Below, one piece after another: positions 36,347-55,474 of a stretch of DNA of 64,000 nt. How positions within the stretch are numbered: position 1 is the first letter of the stretch; every line of letters starts with the position of its first letter. The DNA comes from a virus. A program made the translations under genes and the position numbers. The notes under the pieces are model-generated. The model saw only the letters and a list, made by a program, of their open reading frames with translations. It made no database searches and was not told where the DNA came from. The stretch spans positions 15,121 to 79,120 of the IMG/VR virus record IMGVR_UViG_3300028388_003025; one strand, given 5' to 3'.

Positions 36347-36347
36347 G

Positions 36348-39042: not shown

Positions 39043-42000
39043 TGGTAAAAGGTAAACAAGTATACTCAGCTGGTGAGCTATATACAACGTCAGCAGTAAA
39101 TCAAGAACAATTAGATAGAGAGATTGGAGATAGCAATCTAATATCAGACCTTATAACCAAGGGCAAGGTAATAATTGGAGACACAGGCTTAAAGGGAGTT
39201 GCTGGATCTTCAGAATTTTCTATAAACCCAGGCACGGCATATGCATTGCAGAGTAATGATATTGTAAGGCGTATAGCCCTTGAATCTTTTATTGAATACG
39301 AGCCTCAAATGTCTGTTGATAAGAACACAGTTGTTGTGGATCACAAGATAAAACCTGGCGGCACAGTGAGAGTTTACAAAGCTTTCGCAGCAAACAGATT
39401 CATCGAGATGGAATCAGTTGGCGAAGGCGATGGGACTATCGCTCAATTTGATTTACAATATGTTTCCGATGGCGACGATGCTGATCCTAATTTTGTATAT
39501 ATAAACGAGAACGCTATCGATCCTTCTAAGTGGTTCTTTACAACTGGATCTAATGGTCAGTCTCAAAAAGCAATTAAATTTAATCAAACAACTTCAGAGA
39601 TAGAAACAGATAACGCTCAGGCAGATTGGAACCTGACAGGGCTTATATTAAAACTATCTCTCTTTAATCCAGCAACACTCAGCTTTATAAACGTAGATGT
39701 TAACTTTGTTGGCGCGAATCCGCTTGCAACTAATGATGTTGTTGCGCAAATTCAATCAGCAATAAACAATGCTGGCATGAATCCTTATTATCAAGCGACG
39801 ACAAGCGCAAGTAAGATAAGTATATCAAGTATAAATACAGGCTTTGACAAGAGAATTAAAATAATTTCAAGCGGTAGCACAGCAATAGGCGTTGGGCTTC
39901 TAGAATACAGTGGAGCAAATTTAGACACAGAGGTTGCTGGCTCTGGTGAGGTTACATTATATGATAGGGTTTATTGTTCTTACACTAGATATTATAAGGA
40001 TTATTATGGAAGCTTTAGCTTAACCGACTATAAAACAATAACGCTTAATGATGATCTAACTAGTGAAGAGGATCAGAATGAATCAATTCCAGTTATCGTA
40101 GAATATGAGCCAGACCTTACATATTATTATGGTGGTGATGAATACTCAATAGCAGCTCTGCCATCTAGTGGTAATAGCCGATATGATTTAGTATACATCG
40201 AGTTTAAAGAAGATAAAAAATACCATGAACAATTCTTTTTCAATACTGATACATTAGCACCAGAAAGAAAAACATCTCTATCTAGAAATGTATATAGTTA
40301 TGAGATTAAAGTTTTATCAGCAGCAGAGGCCGCTACGAATCCTCCGCATGTTGATATTGACGATTTATTAAATTCATCAACTGGTGTTAGTCCATATGCC
40401 ATACCACTATTTGAGGTTCTAGTAACTGATGCTGGCGCTGTTTCTATAGAGAATAACATTATAGGTTCGGTTACTGGCACTCAGGACGTAAACTATTTAA
40501 GACTATCTGACTATAGGTTCTATAATTCAAACCTAGATAATTTTAGACGAAGAGAAATTGATGTTCCAATAAAAGAACAATGGACAGTCACTACAGGCAA
40601 TTCAACTCAGATATTAAACTTTGACGAAGAGTATGGATATTGCATAGCAGATGATTATGTTACAGTTGCTGACCAGAACCCTAGTGGAGATCTTGTATAT
40701 AGAGATGCAGCTGGAGCTCCTGCGGCAGAAGATATTGATAACTTAATATTCGCAAAGATAACAACAGCAACTCCTGGTTCCGAAGAAGTCACGTTCTATC
40801 GTGGCGATCCAAATGGAACTCTCGGTGTTGACTATAATGTATTCACAACAGCTTCAAATGAAGACTGGATTCTTAACTACTATATAAGATCAACGATAGA
40901 AAGAATGCCTGTTGATATTTTAAAAACACTATCAACAAACGGAATGGCAATAGATTCTGGCGCATTAACTGAAACAGCTAAGAACTTAAGAAAGCTTAGG
41001 GTAGACTTTAATACTGTAATGAACGGCAAGCTTACCTATATTAAGAGTTTGCAAGAAATAAAATGGACAGCAACCAGATTCTTATTTAGAGACATAGATG
41101 GTTCTTCTGTCAATACTCTAACAGCCAGTGCGGCCAATGTTGCAATAGCTGACGGAGAATATGCTTATGTTATATTTGACAGAACTGGCGCCACTGTATT
41201 AAATGATGAAGTAAAAGTGGACTCAAACCCTTGGGCCCTACATCCTGATTATGAAAACGATTTAATAATTCTTGGCGTAAGAGATGGGCAAGACTTCTTT
41301 TATGCAAATGATTCTAATAGTGGTACTGGCGGTGGCGGAGAGTGGGTTGAAGAAGTCAATGCTCCAGCCACAATGACTGGTTCAAATCAGCTAGTTATAC
41401 CAGACGCAGACGACGTTGCTGATTCTATATATTCTATTGGAAGGTTTGTCAGAATTGAAACAGTTGAAGGACTGGGTGCTGAAAATTATTACTATGCTCA
41501 AATATCTGCAGTAGCTAGTGCTCCACCAAACTTCACAATAGATATAGAGAATGTTCAAGATAAAGATGGAACATCACAAACAATTACTAGCGGAGCTACA
41601 ATATTATCTTTTAAATATGTTGCCATGCAGATGAAATATATGGGAATAAACAATGATGTCAACCCACAGAACAAAGCCTTGCTAGATCACGTAAGTGACT
41701 TTTCAATTCACAATTCTTTTAAATATGTATTTAACACAGAGAATCTTTCATCACAAATTGGTGTAGGGGGATCCGGATTATCCTTTACAATGACTTCTGA
41801 TGGAGAGACAGACTCTATAGTTGTATATCATAATGGTGTTTTACTTGATCCTGCAAGTGAGTATACTGTTAATTCAACAAACTCTTTTACAATTATTGGC
41901 AACGTTGATCCTGATGATAGCGTTTTCGTATCATATGCACTGCTAGGTCAGGAGCAAGGATTCGTGTTTAATGAAGACTTGGGCGTTCAAGGCATAGGAA

Positions 42001-42836
42001 GCGTGTTCACAACAGCACAAGAATTCGTTCCATCATCTATAATGGTATTTAGGAATGGCGGTTATTTAACCTTAGGTAGTACTCCAAATGGATATACTGT
42101 AACAGATTCAAATGAAATAACATTAGGCAGTGCTTTGACTGCTGGAGAAACTCTTGTTGTGCACTATGATATAGCTGGAGGAGATACGAACTTTGTCATA
42201 TTCAATGAGAACGTTTCTAGTCAAGCACCAGGATCTACATTCTCTTTAGTCAACGCGTTTTTTCCAGACTCATTAATGGTCATAAGAAACGGGCAGGTAC
42301 TAACACAAGGAATAGACCCAGGAGACTTTACGGTTTCTGGAACAAGAACATTTACCCTCAATACTCCAGCAGAAAGCTGGGAATCTATAGTCGTTACATA
42401 CAATAGACAATGGACTACAGTTGCTGCACTTATAGATTTAACAGATGTAAATCTAGAAAGCCCTGCAGAAGGAGATGTTCTTACATATAATGCAACTTCT
42501 GAGAAGTGGGAAAATACAGTTCAAAAAGAATATATTACGCTTAAGGCAATGGTTCCTTCAGTAAGTTCTTATCTAGACATAGCATCTATTCCTTGGGACG
42601 GAACTATAACTGGAGTAAAAATCAAGTGTGACCAAGGTACTGCAAACTTAACTGCTAGTCTATATAAAAATGGCGCCAGCTTAGTCGCTGGACCGACAGC
42701 ATTATTAAATAATAACTGGACAGATCCAGGCCCATTGGCAAACACGTCTGTTGTAATAGGGGATACACTTAACTTAGATGTTTCTTCTTACACAACAGGA
42801 ACAGTGTTACTTATTGAGGTTGAAATAACCCGATAA
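39042..42836 (+). CDS. Large tail fibre / baseplate attachment protein
   Basis: INPGTAY and RYDLVYI baseplate-attachment-like motifs; three ~75-aa repeats (VYHNGVLL, VFRNGGYL, VIRNGQVL); DLTDVNLESPAEGDVLTYNATSEKWEN fibre motif. Confidence 0.75.
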   Translation: MVKGKQVYSAGELYTTSAVNQEQLDREIGDSNLISDLITKGKVIIGDTGLKGVAGSSEFSINPGTAYALQSNDIVRRIALESFIEYEPQMSVDKNTVVVDHKIKPGGTVRVYKAFAANRFIEMESVGEGDGTIAQFDLQYVSDGDDADPNFVYINENAIDPSKWFFTTGSNGQSQKAIKFNQTTSEIETDNAQADWNLTGLILKLSLFNPATLSFINVDVNFVGANPLATNDVVAQIQSAINNAGMNPYYQATTSASKISISSINTGFDKRIKIISSGSTAIGVGLLEYSGANLDTEVAGSGEVTLYDRVYCSYTRYYKDYYGSFSLTDYKTITLNDDLTSEEDQNESIPVIVEYEPDLTYYYGGDEYSIAALPSSGNSRYDLVYIEFKEDKKYHEQFFFNTDTLAPERKTSLSRNVYSYEIKVLSAAEAATNPPHVDIDDLLNSSTGVSPYAIPLFEVLVTDAGAVSIENNIIGSVTGTQDVNYLRLSDYRFYNSNLDNFRRREIDVPIKEQWTVTTGNSTQILNFDEEYGYCIADDYVTVADQNPSGDLVYRDAAGAPAAEDIDNLIFAKITTATPGSEEVTFYRGDPNGTLGVDYNVFTTASNEDWILNYYIRSTIERMPVDILKTLSTNGMAIDSGALTETAKNLRKLRVDFNTVMNGKLTYIKSLQEIKWTATRFLFRDIDGSSVNTLTASAANVAIADGEYAYVIFDRTGATVLNDEVKVDSNPWALHPDYENDLIILGVRDGQDFFYANDSNSGTGGGGEWVEEVNAPATMTGSNQLVIPDADDVADSIYSIGRFVRIETVEGLGAENYYYAQISAVASAPPNFTIDIENVQDKDGTSQTITSGATILSFKYVAMQMKYMGINNDVNPQNKALLDHVSDFSIHNSFKYVFNTENLSSQIGVGGSGLSFTMTSDGETDSIVVYHNGVLLDPASEYTVNSTNSFTIIGNVDPDDSVFVSYALLGQEQGFVFNEDLGVQGIGSVFTTAQEFVPSSIMVFRNGGYLTLGSTPNGYTVTDSNEITLGSALTAGETLVVHYDIAGGDTNFVIFNENVSSQAPGSTFSLVNAFFPDSLMVIRNGQVLTQGIDPGDFTVSGTRTFTLNTPAESWESIVVTYNRQWTTVAALIDLTDVNLESPAEGDVLTYNATSEKWENTVQKEYITLKAMVPSVSSYLDIASIPWDGTITGVKIKCDQGTANLTASLYKNGASLVAGPTALLNNNWTDPGPLANTSVVIGDTLNLDVSSYTTGTVLLIEVEITR

Positions 42837-43090: not shown

Positions 43091-43693
43091 ATGAGTAATT
43101 TTGATATAAAAGAGATACAAGACAAACTTGATCTAGACTTTAAAAGTTTTGATAAAGGCAATGCCCCACAAGATGTTTTGTTTAACTATAAAGGTGAAAG
43201 CACAGAGAATAAGATAGAACTTTTCAAGCTTCTATTAACTCATGGCGCTGTCTTAAACAGCTCAATGCTTTCAAATCTTTGGTTTTTAATTAGATCTGGA
43301 GCAGACTTGTCAGATGATTTCTTTAAGTTAGATGCCGTATGGTTCAATGATCTTGAAGAATTTCTTGATATAAAAATAGAATTGAAAAAAGAAATAGATA
43401 TATTCACAAGAGAACTTGTTAAGTATTACCTTGCAGTTATGGCCTCTGCTTCATATGAAATGGAAGGCTCTGACGAAGGAGCCGAAGGAATTCCTTATAC
43501 ATTCCAAAGAGTATTGCTAAGCACTGACTTATTTTCTTTATCAAATTTAGTATACAAGGTTGATTTAAATACAAAAGATTTACCAATAGTTTCAGGCTCT
43601 GTAAAAATATTGAGTGCACTTGTTGGTAAAGCTAAATTTATAATGAGCTTTGCTGAAGATGTATTAAACAAATCTGTAGAGGTAGATAGGTAA
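43091..43693 (+). CDS. Hypothetical helical protein, coupled to poly-Ser protein A
   Basis: SD ggagg; TAATG overlap with 43693. Confidence 0.75.
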   Translation: MSNFDIKEIQDKLDLDFKSFDKGNAPQDVLFNYKGESTENKIELFKLLLTHGAVLNSSMLSNLWFLIRSGADLSDDFFKLDAVWFNDLEEFLDIKIELKKEIDIFTRELVKYYLAVMASASYEMEGSDEGAEGIPYTFQRVLLSTDLFSLSNLVYKVDLNTKDLPIVSGSVKILSALVGKAKFIMSFAEDVLNKSVEVDR

Positions 43694-44286
43694 TGGCGCC
43701 AACTATATCATATCAAGCAGTAATAGATGCAGTCTTGGCAGACATAGAAGCTAAGTGTTCTAATGTTGGAACAGACACTGTTCCTGCAGCTGCTAAAAGC
43801 GCTGTATATTATTCTGAGTCCGGAACCTATGATCTTGGTGGAGCTTTTGAATTAGGCGCGGGGATCAATTCTGTCCCTACAATTTTAAACCTAGTTGCCG
43901 CAGCTACTGTTCAAACACAGCTTGATGCGTTTTTATTACTACATGGCATGGACAGTGCTAGTGGCAAGATGACATCCAAGTTCTTTTTTAGACTAATAAG
44001 TTTATTGGCATGCTTTTATTCTGCAAGAGTAGTACATGCAACATATGCTGCAGGTCAAAGTCTTGTTATATATAACTCAGGCGCTGTAACTTATAATACT
44101 CCAGTTGTCACTGATGATCAGAACCTTGTAACAATTACAGATATAAACGATTTAATAACAAACTTTAAAGATAATTATTCTAATGTTGACAACATTGCAA
44201 ACCTAGGCTATTACACTTCTGCTACTAGCAGCAGTTCTAGCAGTTCTTCGTCGAACTTTATTGCCTATTTTAATTTAAATGGATAA
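43693..44286 (+). CDS. Poly-serine protein A (candidate precursor/substrate)
   Basis: 9 consecutive Ser codons at 44227-44253, then NFIAYFNLNG*; paralogue of 44300..44995. Confidence 0.85.
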   Translation: MAPTISYQAVIDAVLADIEAKCSNVGTDTVPAAAKSAVYYSESGTYDLGGAFELGAGINSVPTILNLVAAATVQTQLDAFLLLHGMDSASGKMTSKFFFRLISLLACFYSARVVHATYAAGQSLVIYNSGAVTYNTPVVTDDQNLVTITDINDLITNFKDNYSNVDNIANLGYYTSATSSSSSSSSSNFIAYFNLNG

Positions 44287-44299
44287 GGAGTATATATAA

Positions 44300-44995
44300 A
44301 TGTTTCCAAACTTGAAGACCTACGGACAACTATATGACGAAGGATTGGCTTATGTAAAAAGCATCTGCAAAAATATAGACAGCTACGATGTGTCTGTTCC
44401 AGACTCCTTGAAACACGGAGCAATATTAACGAGAACTGCTCCACATAACTTGATTGACCCAGCCGTTGCAGCAACCCCAGCCCAGGTAGATTTAACACAG
44501 ACTGCTATTGCCGCAACATCAACAGCAACAGTAGACTCTCAATACCAGGCATACTTCAATGCAAATGGTTTTACTACTGCATCATCTACGTACGCAAACA
44601 CTAAAGCAATCGTTAATTACATTTCACTTCTTAGTGCGTTTATAACTGCAAGATGCGTCACTGTAAAGAATCCAGAAGCTCCAGCAGAAGCTGAGGTTAT
44701 GTATGACGATGGAGCTGTAACATATCCAACAACTGTAGAAAACAAATATAGTATTGATTACATACAAGAAGAAGATTTTGATGCTCTTTACTCTACGTTC
44801 TTTGACTCAATGTCCAGCACTTTGAAGGTTCAGTTCGTAAGCTCTGCAGCAGCACTTAGCTCATCTTCATCCAGTTCGTCATCATCTAGTTCGTCAAGCT
44901 CATCTAGCTCATCATCGTCTAGTTCTTCTAGCTCATCATCATCTAGCAGTAGCTCTAGCTGTTTGTTTGTAGCGTATTTCAACCTTAATGGATGA
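44300..44995 (+). CDS. Poly-serine protein B (candidate precursor/substrate)
   Basis: 34 consecutive Ser codons at 44858-44959, then CLFVAYFNLNG*; SD aaggag; ATGA overlap with the first radical SAM gene. Confidence 0.85.
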   Translation: MFPNLKTYGQLYDEGLAYVKSICKNIDSYDVSVPDSLKHGAILTRTAPHNLIDPAVAATPAQVDLTQTAIAATSTATVDSQYQAYFNANGFTTASSTYANTKAIVNYISLLSAFITARCVTVKNPEAPAEAEVMYDDGAVTYPTTVENKYSIDYIQEEDFDALYSTFFDSMSSTLKVQFVSSAAALSSSSSSSSSSSSSSSSSSSSSSSSSSSSSSSSSSCLFVAYFNLNG

Positions 44996-45909
44996 GCTCC
45001 TATTTAAAGATTTTACAGTTTCTCTTATGGGAGAACTGTAGTAACGGGTGCGAATTTTGTCTGTTTAAAGATGGCAATTTTTACAATGAAGAAGAAAAAA
45101 TATCCTCTATAGACAATGCTATTTCTATAATAAAGAAAAAAGAAACTATTGATAAGTATGACGGCGTCGGACTGATAGGCGGCGAGGTCCTTGAAAGACA
45201 AACTCCAGACGTTGAGTCTAAGTGGTTTGAATTAATAGACTATATAAATAGTAGCGAATATAAAACAGTGTGGCTAGCAACCAGCTTATTGTATAAAGAT
45301 AATTCTTTACTGCATGAAACAATAAACAGGCTTAAAGATGTACACATATATCTATGTACAAGCTTTGATGTTGAAGGTAGATTCAATGAGATTAAAAAAG
45401 AAAATTGGCATAAGAATATAGCATCAATTGATTACGATAATGTCACGATCCACACATCAATTATATTAAATGATTCACTTATTGATGCATTTAATAATCA
45501 TAAGCGCCTTTTAGATAACGTACCAAACTTTAGCTTTATTGCCCCGCAATTAAATGCTACAGAACATTGGGGAAAAGATCTTAAAGACTATAATAGCCTT
45601 TTGAGAGAGCTACATAACACATATCACCCCGGCTTCTTTATAAAGAACAGGTCAGTTTTGTTAAAATTTGTTAGAGAATTTTTTATGCATTATGGTAAGA
45701 ATATACTTAAACATTCAATTGAGATTAAAACGCATAGTTATGATACAATAATACCAAGCAGATTTTCTGAAGACTATTATAAAGACAAGTGGTTGTCTTC
45801 AAGCAAGTTTAACCTTGGCTGTGGCCACGAGAATTATTCTAAATTTTATTTAGACTCAGACAAATGTGTGTTTTGTGATATTGAGGAGGTTCTTAATTGC
45901 TTAGAGTAG
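44992..45909 (+). CDS. Radical SAM protein, CGH-x12-CxxC family paralogue 1
   Basis: LWENCSNGCEFC, LIGGE, TSFDVEGRF, CGHENYSKFYLDSDKCVFCD. Confidence 0.9.
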   Translation: MSSYLKILQFLLWENCSNGCEFCLFKDGNFYNEEEKISSIDNAISIIKKKETIDKYDGVGLIGGEVLERQTPDVESKWFELIDYINSSEYKTVWLATSLLYKDNSLLHETINRLKDVHIYLCTSFDVEGRFNEIKKENWHKNIASIDYDNVTIHTSIILNDSLIDAFNNHKRLLDNVPNFSFIAPQLNATEHWGKDLKDYNSLLRELHNTYHPGFFIKNRSVLLKFVREFFMHYGKNILKHSIEIKTHSYDTIIPSRFSEDYYKDKWLSSSKFNLGCGHENYSKFYLDSDKCVFCDIEEVLNCLE

Positions 45910-47474
45910 AATTAAATAAAGACGAAGAGTCTGTAATTAATTGCTACCAAATGTATCATGACGCTATAACAACAATACTAAGGCCAGACGGAGAAGTTAT
46001 ATCTATAGAAGAAGAGAGGCTTGTAAGAACTAGACATGCTTTAAGAGATGTGGCCAACCCTAACAAACCCTTTTTAGACTCTGAGATACTATGTAAAAGA
46101 GTCTTCCACAATGATAATGATGGCTATTTAAAAGAAGTATATGCTAACGAGTATGATCACCATATAGCTCATGCATATGGAGCATTAACACAAAGCGGTA
46201 TGTGGGATCAGGCTGCAATATTGGTTGTAGATGGTTGGGGTAAGGACATCAACACAGAAGAGTTTAATAGTATAGCAATATTCTCTGCAAATAATGGTGA
46301 GATAGAAACAAAAAGAGTCTATGATATAGCTTATTCTATAGGCGTCATGTATTCATACTCAAGCGAAATGGTATTCAAGCATGAGTTTACAGAAGGAAAG
46401 TTTATGGGACTGGCCACGCATGGCGATGCAAAGTCTGTGCCAAGGCTTTATACTATTGACGAAAGTACTGGAGATATATCTTATTACAGTGAGGCATACC
46501 CAATAAAAGAAGAACACAAAGTCCACAACAATGGCTGGAATACTCACTTATTGAACTGGATCTATAATGAGGTATATCCTCTTTGCAATAGCGATGCAGA
46601 TTTCGCAGCAACAATCCAAAAAGAATTTGAGCTAATTATGTTTGAACTTGTTAAGTATATTAAGAATACTGTAGGTGGTGACCGCTTAATAATAAGTGGA
46701 GGCTGTGGTCTTAACTGTACGTTTAATGGCAAGTTGCTGGCAGCTAATATATTTAAAGATGTCTACATCCCACCTATGTGTACAGATCAAGGAAGTTCTA
46801 TAGGTGTTTTATCTGCATATAAAAAGCAGAATATAAACAAGACACTTAAATATAATACTATAATCCATCCATTGCCGGATGATATTAAAGAAGTAGATAT
46901 GGAGTGGGTGGCTAACATGCTCAAGTCTGGCAAGATAGTTGCATGGTTTGAAGGTGGCTCTGAATATGGGCCAAGAGCATTATGCCATAGAAGCTTGCTT
47001 GCTGTCCCTAACAAGAAAGATGTAGCAGACAAGGTTAACAGAATAAAAAACAGGGAGTTGTGGAGGCCGTTAGCTCCCGTAGTTCTTGATACAGAGTTTG
47101 AAAAGATGTTTGATTGTAAGCCTGGCGTGCTACACGAATTCATGCTTTCAACAGAGACTGTCAGTGAAGATTATAGAGAAAAGGTGCCGGCAGTTCTTGC
47201 TAAAGACAATACTACAAGGCCACAAATACTCTTTAATGATTTAGACAATTCTGTATTGTATTCTATTATGAAGTCATTTGACTTGCCTGTGTTACTTAAC
47301 ACATCCTTTAATGACAGAGGAGAGGCAATATGTGAGTCTCCAGGGGATGCTATAAGGTTTGTAAACAAAAGAGATAAAGAAGATGTGGTGCTTATATTCT
47401 GTGACGGTAATAAGATTTATAACTATGCTAGAATGTCTAAACCACTATTCAATGGAGATACTGATGGCAAGTAG
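45897..47474 (+). CDS. Carbamoyltransferase (NodU/CmcH/TobZ family)
   Basis: EEERL, HHIAHA, VVDGWG, EGKFMGLA, GGCGLN, EYGPRALCHRSLLA, IKNRELWRPLAP, LLNTSFN. Confidence 0.95.
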   Translation: MLRVELNKDEESVINCYQMYHDAITTILRPDGEVISIEEERLVRTRHALRDVANPNKPFLDSEILCKRVFHNDNDGYLKEVYANEYDHHIAHAYGALTQSGMWDQAAILVVDGWGKDINTEEFNSIAIFSANNGEIETKRVYDIAYSIGVMYSYSSEMVFKHEFTEGKFMGLATHGDAKSVPRLYTIDESTGDISYYSEAYPIKEEHKVHNNGWNTHLLNWIYNEVYPLCNSDADFAATIQKEFELIMFELVKYIKNTVGGDRLIISGGCGLNCTFNGKLLAANIFKDVYIPPMCTDQGSSIGVLSAYKKQNINKTLKYNTIIHPLPDDIKEVDMEWVANMLKSGKIVAWFEGGSEYGPRALCHRSLLAVPNKKDVADKVNRIKNRELWRPLAPVVLDTEFEKMFDCKPGVLHEFMLSTETVSEDYREKVPAVLAKDNTTRPQILFNDLDNSVLYSIMKSFDLPVLLNTSFNDRGEAICESPGDAIRFVNKRDKEDVVLIFCDGNKIYNYARMSKPLFNGDTDGK

Positions 47475-48420
47475 CGAAGATAAAAGTTGTAGACCTTTAG
47501 GTATTCAAGTATGGAATGATTGCTCAAATAATTGTAGCTTCTGTGTACAGAAGCACTTTATAAAAGAAGTAACGCCACTTCACAAGAAGAAGCGATCAAT
47601 AGGCCTAGCAATGTCTCAGGTTCTAAACAACGATATAATAAAAGAATATCAAGGAGTCATGCTTATAGGTGGCGAGATATTTGGAGGCCAATTAAAAGGC
47701 CTTTATTCTGACTGGTTTGATCTGCTTGAGGCCTTCAATACTGCAGGATTAAAGCATGTAATACTACAAACAGGCCTCATGTATGAAGATGTTTCAGATC
47801 TTATCGAGTCCTTGGCCATAGTTAAAGATATAGAACAGGTAGTTATATCGACTTCATATGATACGCTAGGCAGATTCTCCAAGAAAACTAAAGACATTTG
47901 GGACAAGAATTTGTTGCTACTAGAGAAGCTAAAGAAGAAGTATAAGTTTCAGATCAATGTTTCTGTAATAATGACCCAAGCATTCATTGATGAGTATCTA
48001 GCTGGGAACTTTGTACACCCTAAAGGGGCTGACAGAGTTAGCTTATGCATCCCTCATATGTTTTCTGACCACCGTGATGCTCTTGATAATCCAGATCAAT
48101 ACTCGGACAAACTAAGAGATAGTGAATGTGAATACTCTGACAGGTTTTTGCCATTAAGGGATATTGATAAGCTTGCAGAGTTTGCTCACAAGTTCTCTGC
48201 CCAGTATGGATATGGAGGACTTGGCAGCTTTATAGAGTCAGCACAAGATATAATTCCATCATTTACACAAGACAATGATGTAGAACCTACCGACTTCATG
48301 CCTCGTAGTAGATGTGGGCACCTATTGATAGCACAATGTTATTCTGACAGCAACGAGTGCCTTGCTTGTGATCTTGAAAAACTAATACCAAATATAAAGG
48401 AGTTGGCAAAGAATGGATAA
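47464..48420 (+). CDS. Radical SAM protein, paralogue 2 (start probably ATG 47464)
   Basis: VWNDCSNNCSFC, LIGGE, TSYDTLGRF, CGHLLIAQCYSDSNECLACD; SD ggag before 47464. Confidence 0.9.
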   Translation: MASSEDKSCRPLGIQVWNDCSNNCSFCVQKHFIKEVTPLHKKKRSIGLAMSQVLNNDIIKEYQGVMLIGGEIFGGQLKGLYSDWFDLLEAFNTAGLKHVILQTGLMYEDVSDLIESLAIVKDIEQVVISTSYDTLGRFSKKTKDIWDKNLLLLEKLKKKYKFQINVSVIMTQAFIDEYLAGNFVHPKGADRVSLCIPHMFSDHRDALDNPDQYSDKLRDSECEYSDRFLPLRDIDKLAEFAHKFSAQYGYGGLGSFIESAQDIIPSFTQDNDVEPTDFMPRSRCGHLLIAQCYSDSNECLACDLEKLIPNIKELAKNG

Positions 48421-49216
48421 GTCTTATTGCGCACACCTAGATTCAAACTCTATGTTTGTTCGCTTCAAGGAGAATAGTTCTGACTTAATCTTTAGCTGTT
48501 GTAGTAACAGGGCTACAGATAACTTTGGCGATAAAGAATGTACTATCTCTTGTGATAACAGATCTGAAAATATAGATATGAAAAACGTATTAGGCATAGG
48601 TGCATACGGCAAATGTAATATACAGTGCAGGTATTGCAACTCTTCTCAGGTAGAGGTTAGTAGCGACTATTATGATATACTTGAAAAGAATATATTAGAG
48701 CGACTAGACCTTTCAAAAGTAGAGAAAATGTTCTGCGGTAGTGGAGAGCTTTTCTGTGACGAAGGTTTGCAGTCCTTATACAAGAAGATATTAGCAATAA
48801 ATCCAAACATTAAGGTTGTTATAGAAACAAATGGCATAGCATGGGACGAGAGTATTTTAGATAATATAGGTATGACAAGCTGTATTGATTCCATTCAGCT
48901 TCATTGTCCAGCATATGATGATGAATCATATAAAAAAATAACAGGGTTTAAAGGAGGTTATTCGCTATTTAAGGAAAAGGCAAAAGATATTTTTGATTTT
49001 TCTAATAGATATGGAATAGAAGACAGTGTAATAATTAATATACTGTTGACCCAGGATCTTAATGCTATAAAATATATTAAGACTATATTGGAAGACTTTA
49101 AAGATTTAAAAATTGGTGTAGCTTCTGTCTTTGGCTATGGTAGCCTAAGCAAGAGAGAACAACAAAGCTTGGCTGCAAGATTTGACGCACCTAATATTGA
49201 GTTTTTATTTTATTAA
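48413..49216 (+). CDS. Radical SAM protein with an N-terminal Cys-rich (SPASM/twitch-like) segment
   Basis: YCAHL...FSCCS...ECTISC before GKCNIQCRYC; GSGELF; ETNG. Confidence 0.8.
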   Translation: MDKSYCAHLDSNSMFVRFKENSSDLIFSCCSNRATDNFGDKECTISCDNRSENIDMKNVLGIGAYGKCNIQCRYCNSSQVEVSSDYYDILEKNILERLDLSKVEKMFCGSGELFCDEGLQSLYKKILAINPNIKVVIETNGIAWDESILDNIGMTSCIDSIQLHCPAYDDESYKKITGFKGGYSLFKEKAKDIFDFSNRYGIEDSVIINILLTQDLNAIKYIKTILEDFKDLKIGVASVFGYGSLSKREQQSLAARFDAPNIEFLFY

Positions 49217-49230
49217 TAGGAGGAAGAAAG

Positions 49231-49974
49231 ATGAATGATGCAGAATTATTAGATTTTTTTAAACAGAAATATGCAGGTCATGACTATAATGAGCAGGTGT
49301 TTACAGATAACATAAACCTATTCTCACTTGCTGACGATGAGATTGTTATAAACTTTTGTGGTTGTGAATACAGAGGATGCAACTTTTGTACACACTCTAA
49401 GGATAATGGGCTTAACTATATCCCTATCGAAAAGCTTAAACAAATAATACTAGGCTTGAACATACCTTCAATTGGCCTTTCTGGTAGTAACTTAAATAGT
49501 TATCCAGACCTGGTTGAGCTATATGATTGGCTTGAAGAGAACAATATTACAATCACAAAGATAAGAGGACTTACTCCTGCCGGGCAAGTTGCTAGAGATA
49601 TACTAGACAAGGCATCATTACTTGGTCCAGACGCAGTGGCTATAAGAATAATGGCGGGATCTGACAGAATGCTAGAGGCTATGGGTGCTAATTTTACAGT
49701 TCAAGATATTGAAACTGCTATATCCCTAGCATCAAGTGCGGGCAACAAGGTTTCATTACATGTATTATGTGGATATCCTGGTGATGCTCAAGATAATATT
49801 GATGGTATTAACTCTTTAATTCAATATAATAATTGTCAGGTATGTCTTTGCAGGTTTAACCCACCAGAATGGTTTGAAGGTTCAGCTATGGACGAGCAAG
49901 AAATGCTTGATCTGTATAAAGACTTTAAAGAAATAGATAATTTGTATGGAGAAAATACAAAGTATTGGGTGTGA
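49231..49974 (+). CDS. Radical SAM protein with a MiaB/class-B-like core and Cx4Cx2C motif
   Basis: GCEYRGCNFC, GLSGSNL, AGSDRMLEAMG, LCGYPGD; no obvious B12-binding or TRAM domain. Confidence 0.75.
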   Translation: MNDAELLDFFKQKYAGHDYNEQVFTDNINLFSLADDEIVINFCGCEYRGCNFCTHSKDNGLNYIPIEKLKQIILGLNIPSIGLSGSNLNSYPDLVELYDWLEENNITITKIRGLTPAGQVARDILDKASLLGPDAVAIRIMAGSDRMLEAMGANFTVQDIETAISLASSAGNKVSLHVLCGYPGDAQDNIDGINSLIQYNNCQVCLCRFNPPEWFEGSAMDEQEMLDLYKDFKEIDNLYGENTKYWV

Positions 49975-49978
49975 ATAC

Positions 49979-50905
49979 ATGAAGCTTCCTATAAAGAACT
50001 TTAAAGAGTTTATCCCCAAGCACGAAGAGTATATAAGAAGTAGTATTATATTCTTTCCAGACTGTGATTTTAATTGCAAGTTCTGCATATACAGAAATTG
50101 CCACGACATGACTACTATTGAAGATAGAGAGGTCATACTAAAGAAGGCTATAAAGCTTGTGTCTGATCCAAAGCTTAAGCCAACACCAATACTATCCTTG
50201 GTTGGTGGCGAATTCTTCGGAACCAAACTTAAAGGTCTTGAAGATTTGTGGCTAGAACTAATGACTGTTTGTTACAACTCTGGCTTTGAATTGATACAAG
50301 TACAGACCTCGTTGATGTTTAAAGAGATGCCATTGTTAGATAAGACAGCAGAAATACTCAAAGAAAAGTTGTCGGTCGCTACATCATATAATGAAGAGGG
50401 AAGATTTTCCAATACAAGGAAAAGCAATTGGAGAAAACATCTTGACCACTATAAATCTATAGGGGCTAACGTGTATATAATATATACTCTTAGCCAAAAC
50501 TTTATAGACAAATTATATAATCATGAAGTTTCTTTTGAGCCAGATACTGATAGGCTATTTAGATTGCCTACAATACCGTATGGTGAAGACTGTATTTATA
50601 ATAACTCTGATGAATATTATGAATATGTTAAAAGAAATATAGATAAATATCCTGAGAACTTTTTTATATCAGACAGGGAGAAGCTTATAAGCGTTATAAA
50701 AGAGTATGACGAGATGACTCCAAGAGCATTCTTTGCAAGCATATATTTTGAACGTTCATTTATATTGCACAAATATCCTGATATATATTACAATCATGTG
50801 TTTAATGAGTGTGGACACTCAATACTTGGTATGAACTATTTCAACGAAGAGCATGATTGTATATTATGCGACATTGAAGAAGCTTTTAAAGAGGAGGTTG
50901 AGTAA
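49979..50905 (+). CDS. Radical SAM protein, paralogue 3 (start 49979 or 49946)
   Basis: FFPDCDFNCKFC, LVGGE, TSYNEEGRF, CGHSILGMNYFNEEHDCILCD. Confidence 0.88.
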   Translation: MKLPIKNFKEFIPKHEEYIRSSIIFFPDCDFNCKFCIYRNCHDMTTIEDREVILKKAIKLVSDPKLKPTPILSLVGGEFFGTKLKGLEDLWLELMTVCYNSGFELIQVQTSLMFKEMPLLDKTAEILKEKLSVATSYNEEGRFSNTRKSNWRKHLDHYKSIGANVYIIYTLSQNFIDKLYNHEVSFEPDTDRLFRLPTIPYGEDCIYNNSDEYYEYVKRNIDKYPENFFISDREKLISVIKEYDEMTPRAFFASIYFERSFILHKYPDIYYNHVFNECGHSILGMNYFNEEHDCILCDIEEAFKEEVE

Positions 50906-51820
50906 ATGAGCATGATTCAGTACGGTCTATTCCCTAACTGTTCTAATAGATGTAAGTTTTGTCTTATAAAAGAAAGAGAATTCTTTTCTATGGATCAAGT
51001 AATTAGTGAGCTTGATAAAGTTATAAAGAATATTGATTATATTGATTGGGAAAATAAGTTTGACGCTGGAATATCTCTGCTCGGTGGAGAGATATATTAC
51101 ATAACAGATGAGAAATATAGACAAAAGTTTCTTGAACTTATAGATACTATAATAGAAAAGATATTAAAAGTATCTAAGAATCCTAATGTCAGATTTTCTA
51201 CTGTAACTAATGGGATATATAATCCAGAAAACCTTCTGTTTCCAGCAATAGACAAGATTGCTGATGCTGTCGGAATTAGCAAGGTAGATGTTAACTTTAG
51301 CTATGATCTTAAATACAGATATTCTAGTGAGGAAGATAGGCTACTTGTCCTAGAAAACATAAACAAGTTCCATGAAAGATACAACTATATTACAGGAGTT
51401 CAAATGGTATTGACGCAACACTTAATTGAAAAGGTTAAGGCTGGAGAGTTTGATGTAAATGATTTTGAGAAAGACGTTATCCCAGGAAATTGGCTTGCAT
51501 TGTTGTACCCGCACACAGTAAGGACTGGCGAAGCTCTTGGCGATTTTAATTTCAATAGAAAAGATTTCATTTGGTTTTATAATTATTTAAGAGAGGCGAA
51601 CCCAAGATTGTTCAGAGCCTTCACTAACTCAACAAAGAATAGTGGAAAGTTTAAACACACCGGCTTATTCTTCAAGGGAACGTCAGGAGGTTTTGATCAA
51701 CCGCCTGTCTTGTCTGACGGCAAAGAGTTGATAAACCCCAAGTGCGGCCACTCAATAATATACCAGTGTTACTCAGACTCTGACAAATGTGTCTTGTGTG
51801 ACATAGAATCGATCAGTTAA
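50906..51820 (+). CDS. Radical SAM protein, paralogue 4
   Basis: LFPNCSNRCKFC, LLGGE, FSYDLKYRY, CGHSIIYQCYSDSDKCVLCD; SD ggagg. Confidence 0.9.
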   Translation: MSMIQYGLFPNCSNRCKFCLIKEREFFSMDQVISELDKVIKNIDYIDWENKFDAGISLLGGEIYYITDEKYRQKFLELIDTIIEKILKVSKNPNVRFSTVTNGIYNPENLLFPAIDKIADAVGISKVDVNFSYDLKYRYSSEEDRLLVLENINKFHERYNYITGVQMVLTQHLIEKVKAGEFDVNDFEKDVIPGNWLALLYPHTVRTGEALGDFNFNRKDFIWFYNYLREANPRLFRAFTNSTKNSGKFKHTGLFFKGTSGGFDQPPVLSDGKELINPKCGHSIIYQCYSDSDKCVLCDIESIS

Positions 51821-51823
51821 TAT

Positions 51824-52648
51824 ATGAATTGCTTTAACATAAAGCTAGGCGATCAGCAACTAGAGAGCGGTCCAATAGCGATAATAAATATGATACTCGT
51901 TTGGATGAGGCTTGCTAGCGAATTCAAAGCAACCATTAGTGTTGATCTTAGCCAGTATGAAGCTTATTATAAATGCAGTATATTAGAAAGATATTTTCTT
52001 CCAATGCTAAATAGCGATATAGATACTGGAGTGGACTTTAGCTTAGTTCATTCAATATATCCTTTTGGCTTGCTTGACTCAATAAATGGAGACAAGGATT
52101 TCTTGCGATCTATTTCTGAAATACAGAAAAGAAATCTTGTCTTTAATAATACATGTATTAAAAGAATTGATTCTGACTTAATTCATTTTAACAAGCTCAA
52201 AAAAGAAGGGGCTTCTATTATGGGGGCTCTCGTTAGAGGTACTGACTACCTTAGTATAACTGGGAAGAATGTTCCAAAATGGCCAGACAATAAACGCATA
52301 ATAAAGTATTGTGAAAAGATAATGAATGACAATCAACATACACACTTGTTTCTTGCTACAGAAGATAGTGATGTATATGCAGCGTTTAAGGATAAGTTTG
52401 GAGAACTATTGATAGATATAGACCAGCCAAGGTTCTCTAGAAAAGACTTTGTATTGCCTGGGCAACTTAATAAAAAGCTTTATGATAACAATATGCTTAT
52501 GGCAGATAAGTACATTAGCTCTTTATATGCCCTTAGTGAATGCGACTCTTTTGTTGGCACGCCGACTAGCGGATCAATATTTGTTAGTATACTAAAACAA
52601 GACTTTAAATTCTTTAATATATTCTATAAGGGAGCTGGCAATGATTAG
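51824..52648 (+). CDS. Fucosyltransferase-like (NodZ/O-FucT-type GT-B) glycosyltransferase 1
   Basis: GALVRGTDY, LFLATED, LSECDSFVGTPTSGS match the three conserved fucosyltransferase-family motifs. Confidence 0.8.
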   Translation: MNCFNIKLGDQQLESGPIAIINMILVWMRLASEFKATISVDLSQYEAYYKCSILERYFLPMLNSDIDTGVDFSLVHSIYPFGLLDSINGDKDFLRSISEIQKRNLVFNNTCIKRIDSDLIHFNKLKKEGASIMGALVRGTDYLSITGKNVPKWPDNKRIIKYCEKIMNDNQHTHLFLATEDSDVYAAFKDKFGELLIDIDQPRFSRKDFVLPGQLNKKLYDNNMLMADKYISSLYALSECDSFVGTPTSGSIFVSILKQDFKFFNIFYKGAGND

Positions 52649-53507
52649 TAAATATACTAGAGTTTGTTATAACAATGGCGCACAAGGCATAGGCGGCTTA
52701 TTTCTGATAGGCCTAAAAGGAATCTACAGCAATGTAGACTCGTCCACGCCAGTCATAGATATGTCAGAATCTGCATATTATTGTGAGCAATTTGATAATC
52801 CAAATATCTGGGAGAACTATTTTAAACAGGTTGATATAAGCTTAAATGAACTCAAAGAACTTGCTCAAGATAATGTAACTGTAGTTAATGAATCTTTTTC
52901 TGAGCCCTATATAAAAAGGTTTACATCTAAAGCGTATGATTATTTAAAAGACACTTATGAAAAATATGTTAGCTTTACTGATGATATAGAGAAAGAGTTT
53001 TCCGAAAGCTTACAAGCTATCGCTGGAAAGAAATGCCTGGCAGTGTGTGGCAGAGGTACGGATTATTTATATGCAAATCCTGAAAGACACGCAATAATGC
53101 CAGAACCATACTTCTTACTCGAAGAGGCTGAAAGATTTGTTAATGAGCATGGATATACTCATGTGTTCTTAACAACAGAAGATCAGCATATATTTGATAT
53201 GTTTAAGTCAAAGTTTAATGAGAAATTAATAGCAGTTGATATGCATCGTGTTACAAGACTAGAGGTTCTCAAGGCAGGAACGATATGCAATATACCTATG
53301 GATATGGTAGCCTTTACTAAAGCGTATCTTAAGTCTATATTCTTAATGTCTAGATGTGATGGCTTTATTGGCGGAAGCAATGGCTCAGCCTTAGCTTCTA
53401 TAGTAATGAGAGGCAACAAAGAATTTGGCGACTTGAATATATACTATCTTGGCAATATAAGAAACTATAGAAAGTACAATATATATACTGGAGAGGGTGA
53501 TAACTAA
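52641..53507 (+). CDS. Fucosyltransferase-like glycosyltransferase 2
   Basis: GIGGLF, NIWENYFKQ, AVCGRGTDY, VFLTTED, MSRCDGFIGGSNGS. Confidence 0.82.
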   Translation: MISKYTRVCYNNGAQGIGGLFLIGLKGIYSNVDSSTPVIDMSESAYYCEQFDNPNIWENYFKQVDISLNELKELAQDNVTVVNESFSEPYIKRFTSKAYDYLKDTYEKYVSFTDDIEKEFSESLQAIAGKKCLAVCGRGTDYLYANPERHAIMPEPYFLLEEAERFVNEHGYTHVFLTTEDQHIFDMFKSKFNEKLIAVDMHRVTRLEVLKAGTICNIPMDMVAFTKAYLKSIFLMSRCDGFIGGSNGSALASIVMRGNKEFGDLNIYYLGNIRNYRKYNIYTGEGDN

Positions 53508-54568
53508 TGAGATATGCAGATCCTGATAAAATAAAATCATATCAAACAGAGTTATGGCAAGAGTGTAACAACCTTTGTGCCTATTGTTATCTTGGGCAAG
53601 AGAATAGAAAAACTCCAGATTCTGTAAAAGAAGAGTCACTAAGAATATTTCTTAAGAAGTTAGACAGCTTTGATTTCGAAAACTACAACAACATATCATT
53701 TATTGGCGGGGAGTTCTTTCAAGGACAATTATCTACACCAGAAATAAAAAGGTTATTCATGGAGATAATGAACAAAGTTCATTGCTTTATGAAAGAGGGC
53801 AAGTTAAGATCTGTATGGATAACAGCAACTCTAACCATAGGTGATCAGCCAGAACTTTACGAGGTTATAGAGATGTTTAAAGATATTGAAATTGATCCAG
53901 AAGATAGACAGAAAGGCTTGTGGATATGTACAAGCTATGATGTTATTGGCAGATTTCATTCAGATAAAATGCTAGAGACCTGGCAAACACATATGCTTAA
54001 AATGCATAATGACTATCCTTTTGTTAAGCTAAACACTACCATTATAGTTATGGGCAAGTTGTGCGATATGTATCTAGACAACAAGTTCTCATTTAGAGAG
54101 TTTATCGACAAATACAATACAGCTATATTCTTAAAGCAACCAGGATCTGGCACCCTTAATGACGAGAGGGAGAGGGATGTATCTAATCCTAAAGACCTAG
54201 AGCGACTTAAGAAAGTGATAATGGAAGAGCGAGTCCCAGGGATGTTCCCTAAGAGGAAGCTGTTCTTAAAGTTCTTAACTAAGTTTGCAAAAGAAGAGCC
54301 TGAGTTGTACGATAGATTATACAACATAGAATACAGAGCTGACGTGTTAGTCAGAAACTTTAATAGCATTGACCGTCTTGATAAATCTTTTGAGAGAGAT
54401 AAACATGCTGTAATAGAAGACCAGGCATCTACCTGTATTAATGACTGTGGGCATATAATAGAATATGCTGCATATATTGATTGTGATAACTGTGCCATAT
54501 GTGATAGGAACGAAGTCTGGGAGGCGGTTCATGGCGCACATCACAAACTATTTGGAATAAAGGAGTAG
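53507..54568 (+). CDS. Radical SAM protein, paralogue 5
   Basis: LWQECNNLCAYC, FIGGE, TSYDVIGRF, CGHIIEYAAYIDCDNCAICD. Confidence 0.9.
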   Translation: MRYADPDKIKSYQTELWQECNNLCAYCYLGQENRKTPDSVKEESLRIFLKKLDSFDFENYNNISFIGGEFFQGQLSTPEIKRLFMEIMNKVHCFMKEGKLRSVWITATLTIGDQPELYEVIEMFKDIEIDPEDRQKGLWICTSYDVIGRFHSDKMLETWQTHMLKMHNDYPFVKLNTTIIVMGKLCDMYLDNKFSFREFIDKYNTAIFLKQPGSGTLNDERERDVSNPKDLERLKKVIMEERVPGMFPKRKLFLKFLTKFAKEEPELYDRLYNIEYRADVLVRNFNSIDRLDKSFERDKHAVIEDQASTCINDCGHIIEYAAYIDCDNCAICDRNEVWEAVHGAHHKLFGIKE

Positions 54569-54577
54569 GAGGACATC

Positions 54578-55474
54578 ATGAGTAATAGCTACGAACATCC
54601 AATGTACGAGTTCCTTGTGTGGAATGATTGTGGAAACAATTGTAGATTCTGCTGGCAAAAGCATTTTAATGACAAGACAAAGATGCTTGAGTCAGAAGCA
54701 GACAAAACAAAATCTTTACAAGAAGTTTTTAGAATGATTAATGATCCTGAGTTCTTTGAGGCAGGTTCTGACATATTACTTTGCGGTGGTGAGATATTTG
54801 ATAATCTAAATTACAATCTAGACCTTGCCTTGCAGGATATTATAAGACTTATAGTTGATAAGATTAAGAAGAAGGAGATTAGATATTTCTATATGAATAC
54901 TAATTTGATATACAAAGACCTGACAGACTTGTCAGTTGTATTGCAATATCTTGCTACAAATGATGTACTTGGCAACTTTATATTCACAACATCATATGAT
55001 ATTTATGGCAGGTATAAGGATAAAGAAGCTGAGACATTGTTCCTAAGGAACCTTAAAGTAATCAAGGCAAGCTTTCCTAACATAAACATAGCTGTAAACA
55101 TGATAATGACTAAGCAATTATGTAGCGAAATACTAGATAATGGCTTTTCTATAAAAGAATTCTCTGACTTCTATCAAGTAAAGGTGAACACCATCCCGTA
55201 CATAACCCTACATGAAGATATGCAGCCTACAAAGAACGAGGTATTTAAGGCTCTCTTAAAGATAGACAAAGAACTTCCTGGTTATTTTAAGCACTATACA
55301 GAAAACTTTGATTTAGATCAGAAGAAAATACTGCTTGAGTATATAAAAGATATTGGATACCAGGAGTGTACATCGGAATACGATGATTGTGGCCACAACA
55401 CTAACTTTAAGAAGGCATTTTCTGATGGTTCTTGCTATATCTGTAACTGTAAAAATTTACTTGAATCTATGTAA
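54578..55474 (+). CDS. Radical SAM protein, paralogue 6
   Basis: VWNDCGNNCRFC, LCGGE, TSYDIYGRY, CGHNTNFKKAFSDGSCYICN; SD aggagg. Confidence 0.9.
   Translation: MSNSYEHPMYEFLVWNDCGNNCRFCWQKHFNDKTKMLESEADKTKSLQEVFRMINDPEFFEAGSDILLCGGEIFDNLNYNLDLALQDIIRLIVDKIKKKEIRYFYMNTNLIYKDLTDLSVVLQYLATNDVLGNFIFTTSYDIYGRYKDKEAETLFLRNLKVIKASFPNINIAVNMIMTKQLCSEILDNGFSIKEFSDFYQVKVNTIPYITLHEDMQPTKNEVFKALLKIDKELPGYFKHYTENFDLDQKKILLEYIKDIGYQECTSEYDDCGHNTNFKKAFSDGSCYICNCKNLLESM

Follow-up and report, generated by a model that had tools for sequence, protein, structure and literature searches.

The window, 64,000 nt of DNA from an uncultured gut or rumen phage, contained a block of plus-strand genes that includes several radical SAM (rSAM) genes. 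The features of this block were as follows.

43091-43693, +, helper protein of 200 aa, with homologues in 35 loci that always adjoin tailed proteins
43693-44286, +, candidate substrate 1, a tailed-family member and paralogue of the 44300 product: folded domain of ~170 aa, 9 Ser, cap NFIAYFNLNG
44300-44995, +, candidate substrate 2: folded domain of ~185 aa, 34 Ser and 1 Cys, cap LFVAYFNLNG
44992-45909, +, family rSAM, lineage-specific copy (A-like), full CGH-x12-CxxCD (alignment, family HMM)
45897-47474, +, carbamoyltransferase (NodU/CmcH-type), optional accessory (Carbam_trans_C 7e-44, Carbam_trans_N 4e-26)
47464-48420, +, family rSAM, lineage-specific copy (A-like), full motif with an additional Cys within the spacer
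48413-49216, +, small rSAM unrelated to the family, canonical Radical_SAM domain (PF04055, 52 bits), window-specific
49231-49974, +, short rSAM, kin of MiaB/RimO-like rSAMs in other cassettes (PF04055, 42 bits)
49979-50905, +, family rSAM, most divergent copy (C-like), CGH-x13-CxxCD
50906-51820, +, family rSAM, type B, fifth Cys always present; orthologue in locus L002 at 62% identity
51824-52648, +, paralogue A of a pair, 274 aa, no family found, 31% identical to the 52641-53507 product
52641-53507, +, paralogue B of the pair, 288 aa, orphan, no family found
53507-54568, +, family rSAM, type A, C-terminal motif present; orthologue in L002 at 47% identity
54578-55474, +, family rSAM, type C, CxxCN, extra conserved mid-protein Cys; orthologue in L002 at 45% identity

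Just upstream in the window lay a gene for a baseplate wedge protein and another, fibre-like, of 1264 aa. The span 44992-55474 had been read from the sequence as six paralogous rSAM genes; the six were found, but five further genes inside the span fell outside the subfamily. Among these, the carbamoyltransferase was present in 7 loci only, and the 49231-49974 product was linked by phmmer to L003:13227-14537 and others, which are methylthiotransferase-like proteins that also occur fused to family rSAMs. Weak QueE- and NrdG-like matches were obtained for the 48413-49216 product.

Alignment of the six family ORFs with MAFFT showed invariant columns at C16, C20, C23, G63-G64-E65, S124, R130, C277-G278-H279, C292 and C295 (44992-ORF numbering). 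As the sequence-only reading had reported, all four shared motifs were seen in every ORF: W/F-x-x-C-x3-C-x2-C near the N-terminus, h-GGE, (T/F)S(Y/F)(D/N)xxxR(F/Y) and a C-terminal CGH-CxxC. The CGH-CxxC spacer was 12 residues (13 in the 49979 ORF), D directly followed CxxC (N in the 54578 ORF), and 9-21 residues separated the end of the motif from the stop. The CxxxCxxC and the GGE SAM-binding motif, invariant in 6/6, place the ORFs in the radical SAM superfamily, which is marked by these motifs on a partial TIM barrel. The family HMM matched every ORF, with E-values from 9e-45 to 5e-104, so the sharing of motifs was not due to chance. Against PF04055 the six scored 16.8-29.3 bits (E 1e-6 to 8e-3), below the gathering score of 29.5, and they are therefore divergent rSAM members that automatic annotation would miss. 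The high divergence claimed for the copies was also borne out, the other five ORFs sharing 22-32% pairwise identity with the 44992 ORF. The first cluster Cys stood at residue 12-29 in all six, which leaves no room for an N-terminal RRE, as had been argued; no fused PqqD-like RRE was found in the six ORFs, where the C-terminal motif was the final element.

The wider family comprised 943 clusters at 50% identity, of which 270 had E<1e-30, and its enzymes were compact (about 300 aa). No Pfam, NCBIfam or PHROG model reached its cut-off on the family, and no name beyond 'hypothetical protein' was seen among the best 120 of the 1302 homologues listed, in agreement with the proposal of a distinct, uncharacterised family. 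The family is large, unnamed and apparently phage-borne.

Clear orthologues elsewhere were found for only three of the six ORFs (50906, type B; 53507, type A; 54578, type C), with 45-62% identity between orthologues versus at most 31% between these paralogues. Type A orthologues were present in 28 loci and type C orthologues in 26 loci (clade support 1.0), while type B was the search query and by design has an orthologue in every locus examined. Type B always carried a fifth Cys, and the conserved mid-protein Cys of type C was likewise present in the 53507 ORF. Judged by sequence, the 44992, 47464 and 49979 ORFs are lineage-specific divergent copies. The proposed six-fold expansion held as regards multiple paralogues; a more apt description is a conserved tool-kit of several paralogues to which three local copies were added. 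The three conserved orthologous types argue for non-redundant roles of the paralogues, which, as had been suggested, may divide the tract positions among them or assemble into a complex.

The tailed proteins, 41 in number, were roughly 200 aa long and ended in a tract of 8-36 residues followed by a conserved cap, ΦFIAY(M/F)x(I/L). The tract was ~88% Ser and the remainder was almost all Cys, at ~10%; most tracts had some Cys, and that of candidate substrate 1 had none. An AF2 model of candidate substrate 2 (pLDDT 78.9) showed a disordered tract and gave no fold match, and the helper had no Pfam or PDB match.

The helper, a tailed protein and the rSAM set recurred together at 34 of the 38 additional distinct loci from phages or MAGs (27/28 viral, 7/10 MAG); since these loci come from related phages, they do not count as wholly independent co-occurrences. 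The recurrence ties the rSAMs to the Ser tract much more strongly than the sequence-only reading could have shown. The cassettes were made up of the helper, one to four Ser/Cys-tailed proteins and three to eight family rSAMs of at least three orthologous types; gene order was variable, with duplications, and some family rSAMs occurred as gene fusions with an accessory protein of the cassette or with MiaB/RimO-like rSAMs. No protease or exporter was present in the cassettes, and no published description of the cassette was found. On gene content, the six-rSAM set of the window is a local variant of this conserved cassette. The tailed proteins are proposed as the rSAM substrates from synteny alone.

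The consensus C-terminal knuckle was 19-20 residues long, CGH-x3-(Y/F)-x2-Y-x-D-S-D-x-CxxC-D, and was present in 120 of 150 family representatives; about a fifth of the wider family had no C-terminal motif at all. Among the locus ORFs, 111 had both motif halves, 27 had neither and 1 had one half, so the motif is kept or lost as a unit. The seven-Cys SPASM motif (CX9-15GX4C ... CX2CX5CX3C ... C) was absent from the six ORFs, which had only C-x-H ... CxxC, and no Pfam SPASM match was obtained at E<=1; the motif is much shorter than a SPASM domain, as had been stated. In the confident model, DSSP assignment showed that the motif formed a knuckle and a helix N-terminus. The all-or-none occurrence of the motif, this modelled geometry and a weak Pfam match to zf-C2HC_3 suggest that CGH/CxxC may be a putative Cys3His metal site (Zn or Fe-S). 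A twitch domain is a truncated SPASM domain that holds one auxiliary cluster beside the active site. The location of the CGH/CxxC motif corresponded to that of the SPASM domain in relatives: anSME aligned over model residues 1-304, and the SPASM domain of gp062, a distant relative described below, occupied this position.

The same site could instead be a purely structural zinc finger which stabilises a truncated C-terminus and has no redox or substrate role. We lean against this explanation while regarding it as quite plausible. Treble-clef Zn sites typically place Cys2-His-Cys on a knuckle and the N-terminus of a helix, the weak Pfam match is to a zinc-finger model, and a conserved branch of the family does without the motif. 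However, conservation around the ligands extends to Y, D, S, D and the D that follows CxxC, residues for which a bare Zn site has no use; type B has its additional fifth Cys in every case; and the motif takes the place of the gp062 SPASM domain.

The best explanation of these observations, to which we assign a probability of about 0.65 as a whole, is that the six ORFs encode functional enzymes of an uncharacterised rSAM clade on phage or phage-like contigs, paralogues whose divergence is ancient, that together they form the enzyme set of a cassette within a tail/baseplate module, and that the knuckle replaces the SPASM/twitch domain of related enzymes.

Profile searches of the PDB gave YydG/EpeE as the best match (E 5e-9, core only, SYD motif included), followed by viperin (8e-4). 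The AF2 model of the type B rSAM (50906 ORF, pLDDT 94.8) aligned to many rSAM structures with Z 12-15.7. The anaerobic sulfatase maturase anSMEcpe (PDB 4k36-4k39) ranked first (Z 15.7, rmsd about 4, 268-271 residues aligned), followed by ChlB, SkfB, viperin, SuiB and CteB (Z 14.3-14.7), and EpeE was lower (Z 12.3-12.8). The fold ranking was nearly tied (anSME Z 15.7 vs viperin 14.5), and the sequence (EpeE) and fold (anSME) similarities suggest different chemistries. By sequence and model comparison, the nearest relatives are peptide- and protein-modifying rSAMs; clustering with QueE or nucleotide-modifying rSAMs, named earlier as an outcome that would contradict the proposal, did not occur. 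NCBIfam searches of the six ORFs gave no QueE match, 12-20 bits for viperin (cut-off 180) and 12-22 bits for NrdG (cut-off 126).

The cassette most likely rebuilds the Ser/Cys tail chemically, by a putative pathway not previously described. The favoured chemistry, still rather unlikely when taken singly, is an anSME/BtrN-like Cβ oxidation that would convert Ser or Cys to formylglycine-type carbonyls. It would explain a tract that tolerates only Ser and Cys. Like the family, anSMEcpe lacks an RRE, and it targets a protein Ser or Cys, the same two residues that compose the phage tract. Unlike the family, anSMEcpe has a complete SPASM domain that binds two auxiliary [4Fe-4S] clusters, works alone and modifies a single site per sulfatase. 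No sequence-level match to the family was seen; the six ORFs had no NCBIfam match to TIGR03942 at E<=1, and the likeness is at the fold level only. anSME requires two auxiliary clusters, and the family has at most one small site, with about 20% of members having none. Iterative modification by PoyD and by anSME takes a single enzyme, which leaves unexplained why the phage would need four or more paralogues.

Alternatively, the enzymes could be YydG/EpeE-like Cα epimerases that convert L-Ser/L-Cys of the tract to D-residues, perhaps in a fixed pattern, giving protease resistance or a new fold. EpeE of Bacillus subtilis (PDB 8ai1-8ai6, ~320 aa) was by sequence well above other rSAMs, and like the family it has no RRE, CxxxCxxC at the extreme N-terminus, GGE, the SYD motif and one auxiliary site (putative here) in a reduced C-terminal domain. 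It is also described as compact and leader-independent, with a single auxiliary cluster (PMC13012085). The mid-protein Cys of type C and the 53507 ORF could donate H. However, EpeE ranked below anSME, SkfB and CteB by fold, its four-Cys 'T-SPASM' [4Fe-4S] cluster is not conserved here, and no counterpart of its H-donor Cys223, which lies opposite SAM, is conserved across the whole family. The NCBIfam YydG model (TIGR04078, members expected above 300 bits) had no match at E<=0.001 across the 79-kb genome. EpeE works singly and its target is a short peptide that is secreted, as opposed to four to eight enzymes and a folded phage protein. Epimerisation leaves both the Ser/Cys-only tract and the four or more enzyme types unexplained. 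It is judged unlikely.

Thioether, ether or C-C cross-links of the sactipeptide, ranthipeptide or CrpC style would give the tract the form of a rigid ladder. CteB, SkfB and SuiB stood near the top of the fold ranking (Z 14.3-14.6), PapB and SkfB gave weak NCBIfam matches, and most tracts contain Cys. CrpC, which modifies a full-size Cys-rich protein (CrpA) encoded alongside it in Methanococcus voltae, is a precedent for an rSAM that cross-links a whole protein (PMC13692751). Unlike the family, CrpC has an RRE and a SPASM domain with three clusters; the links that it makes are ranthionines (PMC13692751). The low Cys share of the tract, the Cys-free tract of the 43693-44286 product and the lack of a SPASM domain all argue against cross-linking, which is also improbable.

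The explanation that the rSAMs act on a small molecule such as a nucleotide or a sugar (a glycan attached later to the tract, or a viperin-like nucleotide product) rather than on the protein backbone is very doubtful. Viperin-like enzymes were near in fold (Z 14.2-14.5) with weak NCBIfam matches, and a carbamoyltransferase of sugar-tailoring type is present. Yet this gene is limited to the 7 loci, and neither a glycosyltransferase nor a nucleotide enzyme could be recognised in the core cassettes. The constant partners of the rSAMs are the tailed protein and the helper, and the relative that matches them best in sequence acts on a peptide.

In the mechanism proposed for the rebuilding of the tail, the N-terminal CxxxCxxC [4Fe-4S] cluster would cleave SAM, and the resulting 5'-deoxyadenosyl radical would take H from the Ser/Cys tract residues, or from the cap, of the co-encoded protein. 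The helper and the cap would present the tailed protein, standing in for a fused RRE and a leader peptide. The Cys3His knuckle, with the conserved Tyr, Asp and Ser, would close the active site, and a small auxiliary Fe-S cluster bound there, or else Zn, may accept the second electron or position the chain. The conserved paralogue types may perform different steps or act in different registers. The modified product would remain attached to the folded protein, because the cassettes are without a protease or exporter.

A broader reading, held tentatively and at a little under even odds, is a novel form of protein hypermodification encoded by the virus, in which four or more dedicated rSAMs turn the genetically encoded poly-Ser/Cys tail of a folded tail-module protein into a non-proteinogenic polymer and the knuckle is a novel minimal SPASM-derived Fe-S module. 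The polymer could be an aldehyde run, D-residues or a cross-linked ladder, and the phage would use the modified tail in the virion or during infection. rSAM maturases are normally studied on short secreted bacterial peptides. Here, a very large family (hundreds of clusters), found in phages of the gut and rumen and missed by automatic annotation, is linked to a candidate substrate that is repetitive and genetically simple, a folded protein adjoining tail-fibre genes. Were the tail modified as proposed, this would represent a new post-translational chemistry for poly-Ser and a new minimal auxiliary-cluster module. The system is small (one substrate, one helper and four enzymes) and within reach of co-expression.

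Modification of the tail would also offer apparently the first functional explanation for the unexplained multi-rSAM clusters of cultured jumbo phages. Pseudomonas phage pPa_SNUABM_DT01, Aeromonas phage 332-Vera and Campylobacter phage CP220 carry six to twelve rSAM genes per phage, which was called highly unusual, and in the first two these genes adjoin tail-fibre genes (PMC8541153, PMC12390700, PMC2853527). No helper or tailed-protein homologues were detectable among the neighbours of the cultured jumbo-phage rSAMs, which, unlike the family, keep canonical SPASM motifs. The distant relative gp062 of the cultured jumbo phage pPa_SNUABM_DT01 (hhalign 99%, E 3.6e-18) shares the core including TSYDxxGRF, whereas it ends in a canonical SPASM CX2CX5CX3C. 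Adjoining gp062 is a 178-aa protein with a Cys-rich C-terminal repeat, (CHTS)x3. In the window, a second open ATG was present upstream of the 47464 ORF (at 47383) and of the 49979 ORF (at 49946).

The window came from a 79-kb IMG/VR viral contig with an estimated completeness of 72%; its long ORFs, named here by their start coordinates, all lay on the + strand and together formed a structural module. The genes around the radical SAM (rSAM) region included the following.

36291-37451, + strand: baseplate wedge gene (PHROG 6, E 4e-58)
39042-42836, + strand: fibre-like gene of 1264 aa, directly upstream of the rSAM region
Downstream of the rSAM region, + strand: M15-type peptidase

Six ORFs (44992, 47464, 49979, 50906, 53507 and 54578) belonged to one family of compact rSAMs of about 300 aa. 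Five further genes lay in the same span (44992-55474), namely a carbamoyltransferase, two unrelated rSAMs (48413 and 49231) and two paralogues of no known family. The adjacent paralogues at 51824-53507 were 31% identical to each other, shared the motif RGTDY...(A/T)TED and had no homologues beyond their own contig in a word-indexed search; nothing in this analysis supported their assignment as glycosyltransferases.

The six family ORFs could be aligned end to end, with 22-32% identity to the first (44992). Every shared motif that the sequence-only reading had listed, from the N-terminal cluster to the C-terminal CGH-x12/13-CxxC(D/N) knuckle, was found in 6/6 by alignment and motif scan. Invariant columns were C16, C20, C23, GGE63-65, S124, R130, C277-G-H279, C292 and C295. 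The first cluster Cys was residue 12-29, the knuckle spacer was 12 residues long (13 in ORF 49979), and the knuckle ended 9-21 residues from the stop. A chance origin or decay to pseudogenes was rejected, given the intact frames and invariant motifs. Database models described the family poorly: Pfam Radical_SAM gave 16.8-29.3 bits, all below the 29.5 cut-off; NCBIfam gave weak, scattered matches, with scores far under the cut-offs for QueE, NrdG or viperin, and these identities were rejected; in PHROGs the match, to the unnamed rSAM family phrog_1802, was partial. Megablast/tblastn against cultured phages gave no match for either this region of the window or the type B enzyme (50906), and no related loci were found with ORF 47464 as the query.

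Genomic context provided the strongest result of the analysis. With the type B subfamily as the query, 28 IMG/VR loci were obtained, mostly on contigs of 125-313 kb, together with 10 loci in MAG bins; one viral locus (L023) was on the same contig as L001, so 38 distinct further loci were counted. In ORF-level HMM and phmmer searches, a shared cassette recurred in 27 of the 28 viral and 7 of the 10 MAG loci. It consisted of a helper (homologue of window 43091-43693), one to four tailed proteins (homologues of 43693-44286 and 44300-44995) and three to eight family rSAMs. At the C-terminus of the tailed proteins, 8-36 residues formed a tract in which Ser accounted for about 88% and Cys for nearly all of the rest; a cap, ΦFIAY(M/F)x(I/L), came next and ended 0-3 residues short of the stop.

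Clustering divided the family rSAMs into three types. Type B was present in every locus by construction, being the search query; type C was found in 26 loci (clade support 1.0) and type A in 28, one type A sub-branch being without the knuckle. The commonest order was helper, tailed protein (the candidate substrate), C, A without knuckle, B, A. In the window, ORFs 50906, 53507 and 54578 were the B, A and C orthologues, while 44992, 47464 and 49979 were extra copies specific to this lineage. The orthologues shared 45-62% identity with those of other phages versus at most 31% among themselves, which bears out the proposal that the duplications are old and retained. The six members noted in the window were all confirmed, and what was called a six-fold expansion is one local version of a conserved tool-kit, comprising the three orthologues and three lineage-specific copies. 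The largest array observed, in locus L036, held eight family rSAMs and two carbamoyltransferases within 21 kb.

The MAG bins originated in samples of rumen, rabbit and chicken and were assigned to several phyla. Most probably, the contigs concerned belong to jumbo phages and were wrongly placed in bacterial bins. In the MAG loci (L030-L039), the cassette contigs reached 283 kb and had been binned as Succinivibrionaceae, Muribaculaceae, Bacilli, Melainabacteria and Oribacterium.

A profile of the six ORFs matched 943 clusters (50% identity) at E≤1e-3 among 1.8 billion representatives; 270 of them scored below 1e-30, and the majority were full-length matches of 280-350 aa. A second search returned 1302 homologues, the best 120 of which were all called "hypothetical protein" or had no better name. 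Of the 150 best representatives, 120 carried the signature CGH-x3-(Y/F)-x2-Y-x-D-S-(D/N)-x-CxxC-D. Among 142 family ORFs of the 28 loci, 111 had both halves of the motif, 27 had neither and one had a single half; thus, the four putative ligand residues are kept or lost together. Neighbouring positions (Y, D, S, D and the D following CxxC) were likewise conserved, and type B always had a fifth Cys in the spacer. According to DSSP on the model of ORF 50906, C280 and H282 lie on a loop preceding a short strand, and C295 and C298 at the N-terminus of the final helix; this predicted knuckle-plus-helix layout could accommodate a small metal site. An additional Cys in the helix following the sixth strand (TKQLC) was conserved in at least 90% of type C members, including 54578-55474, and was also found in ORF 53507; it could act as an H-atom donor.

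The AF2 model of ORF 50906 (pLDDT 94.8, pTM 0.91) gave generic rSAM matches in Foldseek (TM about 0.5). VIA ranked anSMEcpe at the top (Z 15.7, 268-271 residues aligned over model residues 1-304), followed by ChlB, SkfB, viperin, SuiB and CteB (Z 14.3-14.7) and EpeE (12.3-12.8). As these scores were nearly tied, they were read as a neighbourhood, not a specific enzyme, and the modelled fold would place the family near the SPASM/twitch-type peptide maturases. By sequence, the best PDB match of a 126-sequence profile was the peptide epimerase YydG/EpeE (E 5e-9, core residues 2-179), whose alignment shared the SYD motif, and the second was viperin (8e-4); the curated YydG model had no match anywhere on the 79-kb contig.

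The six enzymes thus combined full rSAM catalytic motifs, a modelled rSAM fold and peptide-maturase neighbours, and in its genomic setting the family was invariably partnered by Ser/Cys-tailed proteins. We infer that the family rSAMs would abstract H from the Ser/Cys tract or the cap, that the helper and cap may stand in for an RRE and leader, that the knuckle may serve as an auxiliary site in the lid of the active site, and that the paralogue types would be non-redundant. The favoured chemistry, held tentatively at a probability of about 0.3, is anSME/BtrN-like Cβ oxidation, because Ser and Cys are exactly what anSME oxidises and an electron outlet is needed near the substrate. Epimerisation of the tract and its cross-linking were each judged somewhat less likely; neither explains a requirement for four or more enzyme types. 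Cross-linking of a whole protein by an rSAM has a recent precedent in CrpC/CrpA (PMC13692751). Cβ oxidation likewise gives no reason for that number.

The N-domain of the tailed proteins was modelled with moderate confidence (pLDDT 78.9) and the tract was disordered. The fold had no match in the PDB (Foldseek) or BFVD and no structural relative in a wide VIA search (best Z 4.5), and a PDB profile search gave low-complexity matches only. Across the loci, 22 ORFs (for example L003:9421-9975) were N-domain paralogues without the tract and cap, usually adjoining a tailed copy. The helper had no match in Pfam or PDB searches; its assignment to DUF7829 (Atlas feature score 0.90) was discounted for too few features in common.

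Accessory genes varied among the cassettes. The carbamoyltransferase was present in 7 loci. An accessory family of about 330 aa (alignment A5; L003:18142-19155 and 23 homologues in 20 loci) was absent from the window, and the 52641-53507 paralogue, an orphan in the word-indexed search, showed no relationship to it. The family's invariant residues were H, Y, D, Y, T, H, G and R, and it shared the motif VxDDVHG...GTxHAL; a PLP-enzyme identity, suggested by eye, was dropped for want of a Pfam or PDB match. Long family members in the databases were N-terminal fusions to an accessory protein or to a MiaB/RimO-like rSAM. The former, of 281 aa, was free-standing in some cassettes (L003:10918-11763) and fused to the rSAM N-terminus in P0026, P0035, P0040, P0046, P0064, P0070 and P0082. 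The latter, of methylthiotransferase type, occurred in some cassettes (L021:10958-14178; L003:13227-14537), was fused to family rSAMs in P0036, P0077 and P0133, and had a short relative in window ORF 49231. These MiaB/RimO-like partners hint at a sulfur-insertion step. The cassettes contained no protease or exporter among their members, so the product probably remains attached to the protein rather than being freed as a RiPP.

A full-text literature search found no description of a cassette of Ser-tailed proteins and rSAMs. Eight rSAM genes within a structural cluster of Aeromonas phage 332-Vera were termed "highly unusual" (PMC12390700), and Campylobacter phage CP220 has eleven (PMC2853527); the papers on these phages and on Pseudomonas phage pPa_SNUABM_DT01 remarked on rSAM numbers and assigned a function in none (PMC8541153, PMC12390700, PMC2853527).

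When another family member was compared by tblastn with 50,697 cultured phage records, one weak match was obtained, to the jumbo phage pPa_SNUABM_DT01 (MW735835). Six annotated rSAM genes lay in its cluster (L040:5445-14427), gp062 and five more; two 2OG-Fe(II) oxygenases and a cupin were also present, beside tail-fibre-like genes. An adjoining 178-aa protein ended in about three CHTS repeats (CHTSCHTSCHS). By hhalign, the window tailed proteins and helper had no homology to the neighbouring proteins of this phage. With its canonical SPASM enzymes, gp066 being anSME/SPASM-like, the cluster seems to be an analogous system that lends itself to experiment. The gp062 protein matched the family core, including TSYDxxGRF (hhalign 99%, E 3.6e-18), and its C-terminus was a canonical SPASM CX2CX5CX3C, which suggests that the CGH/CxxC knuckle arose by reduction of a SPASM domain.
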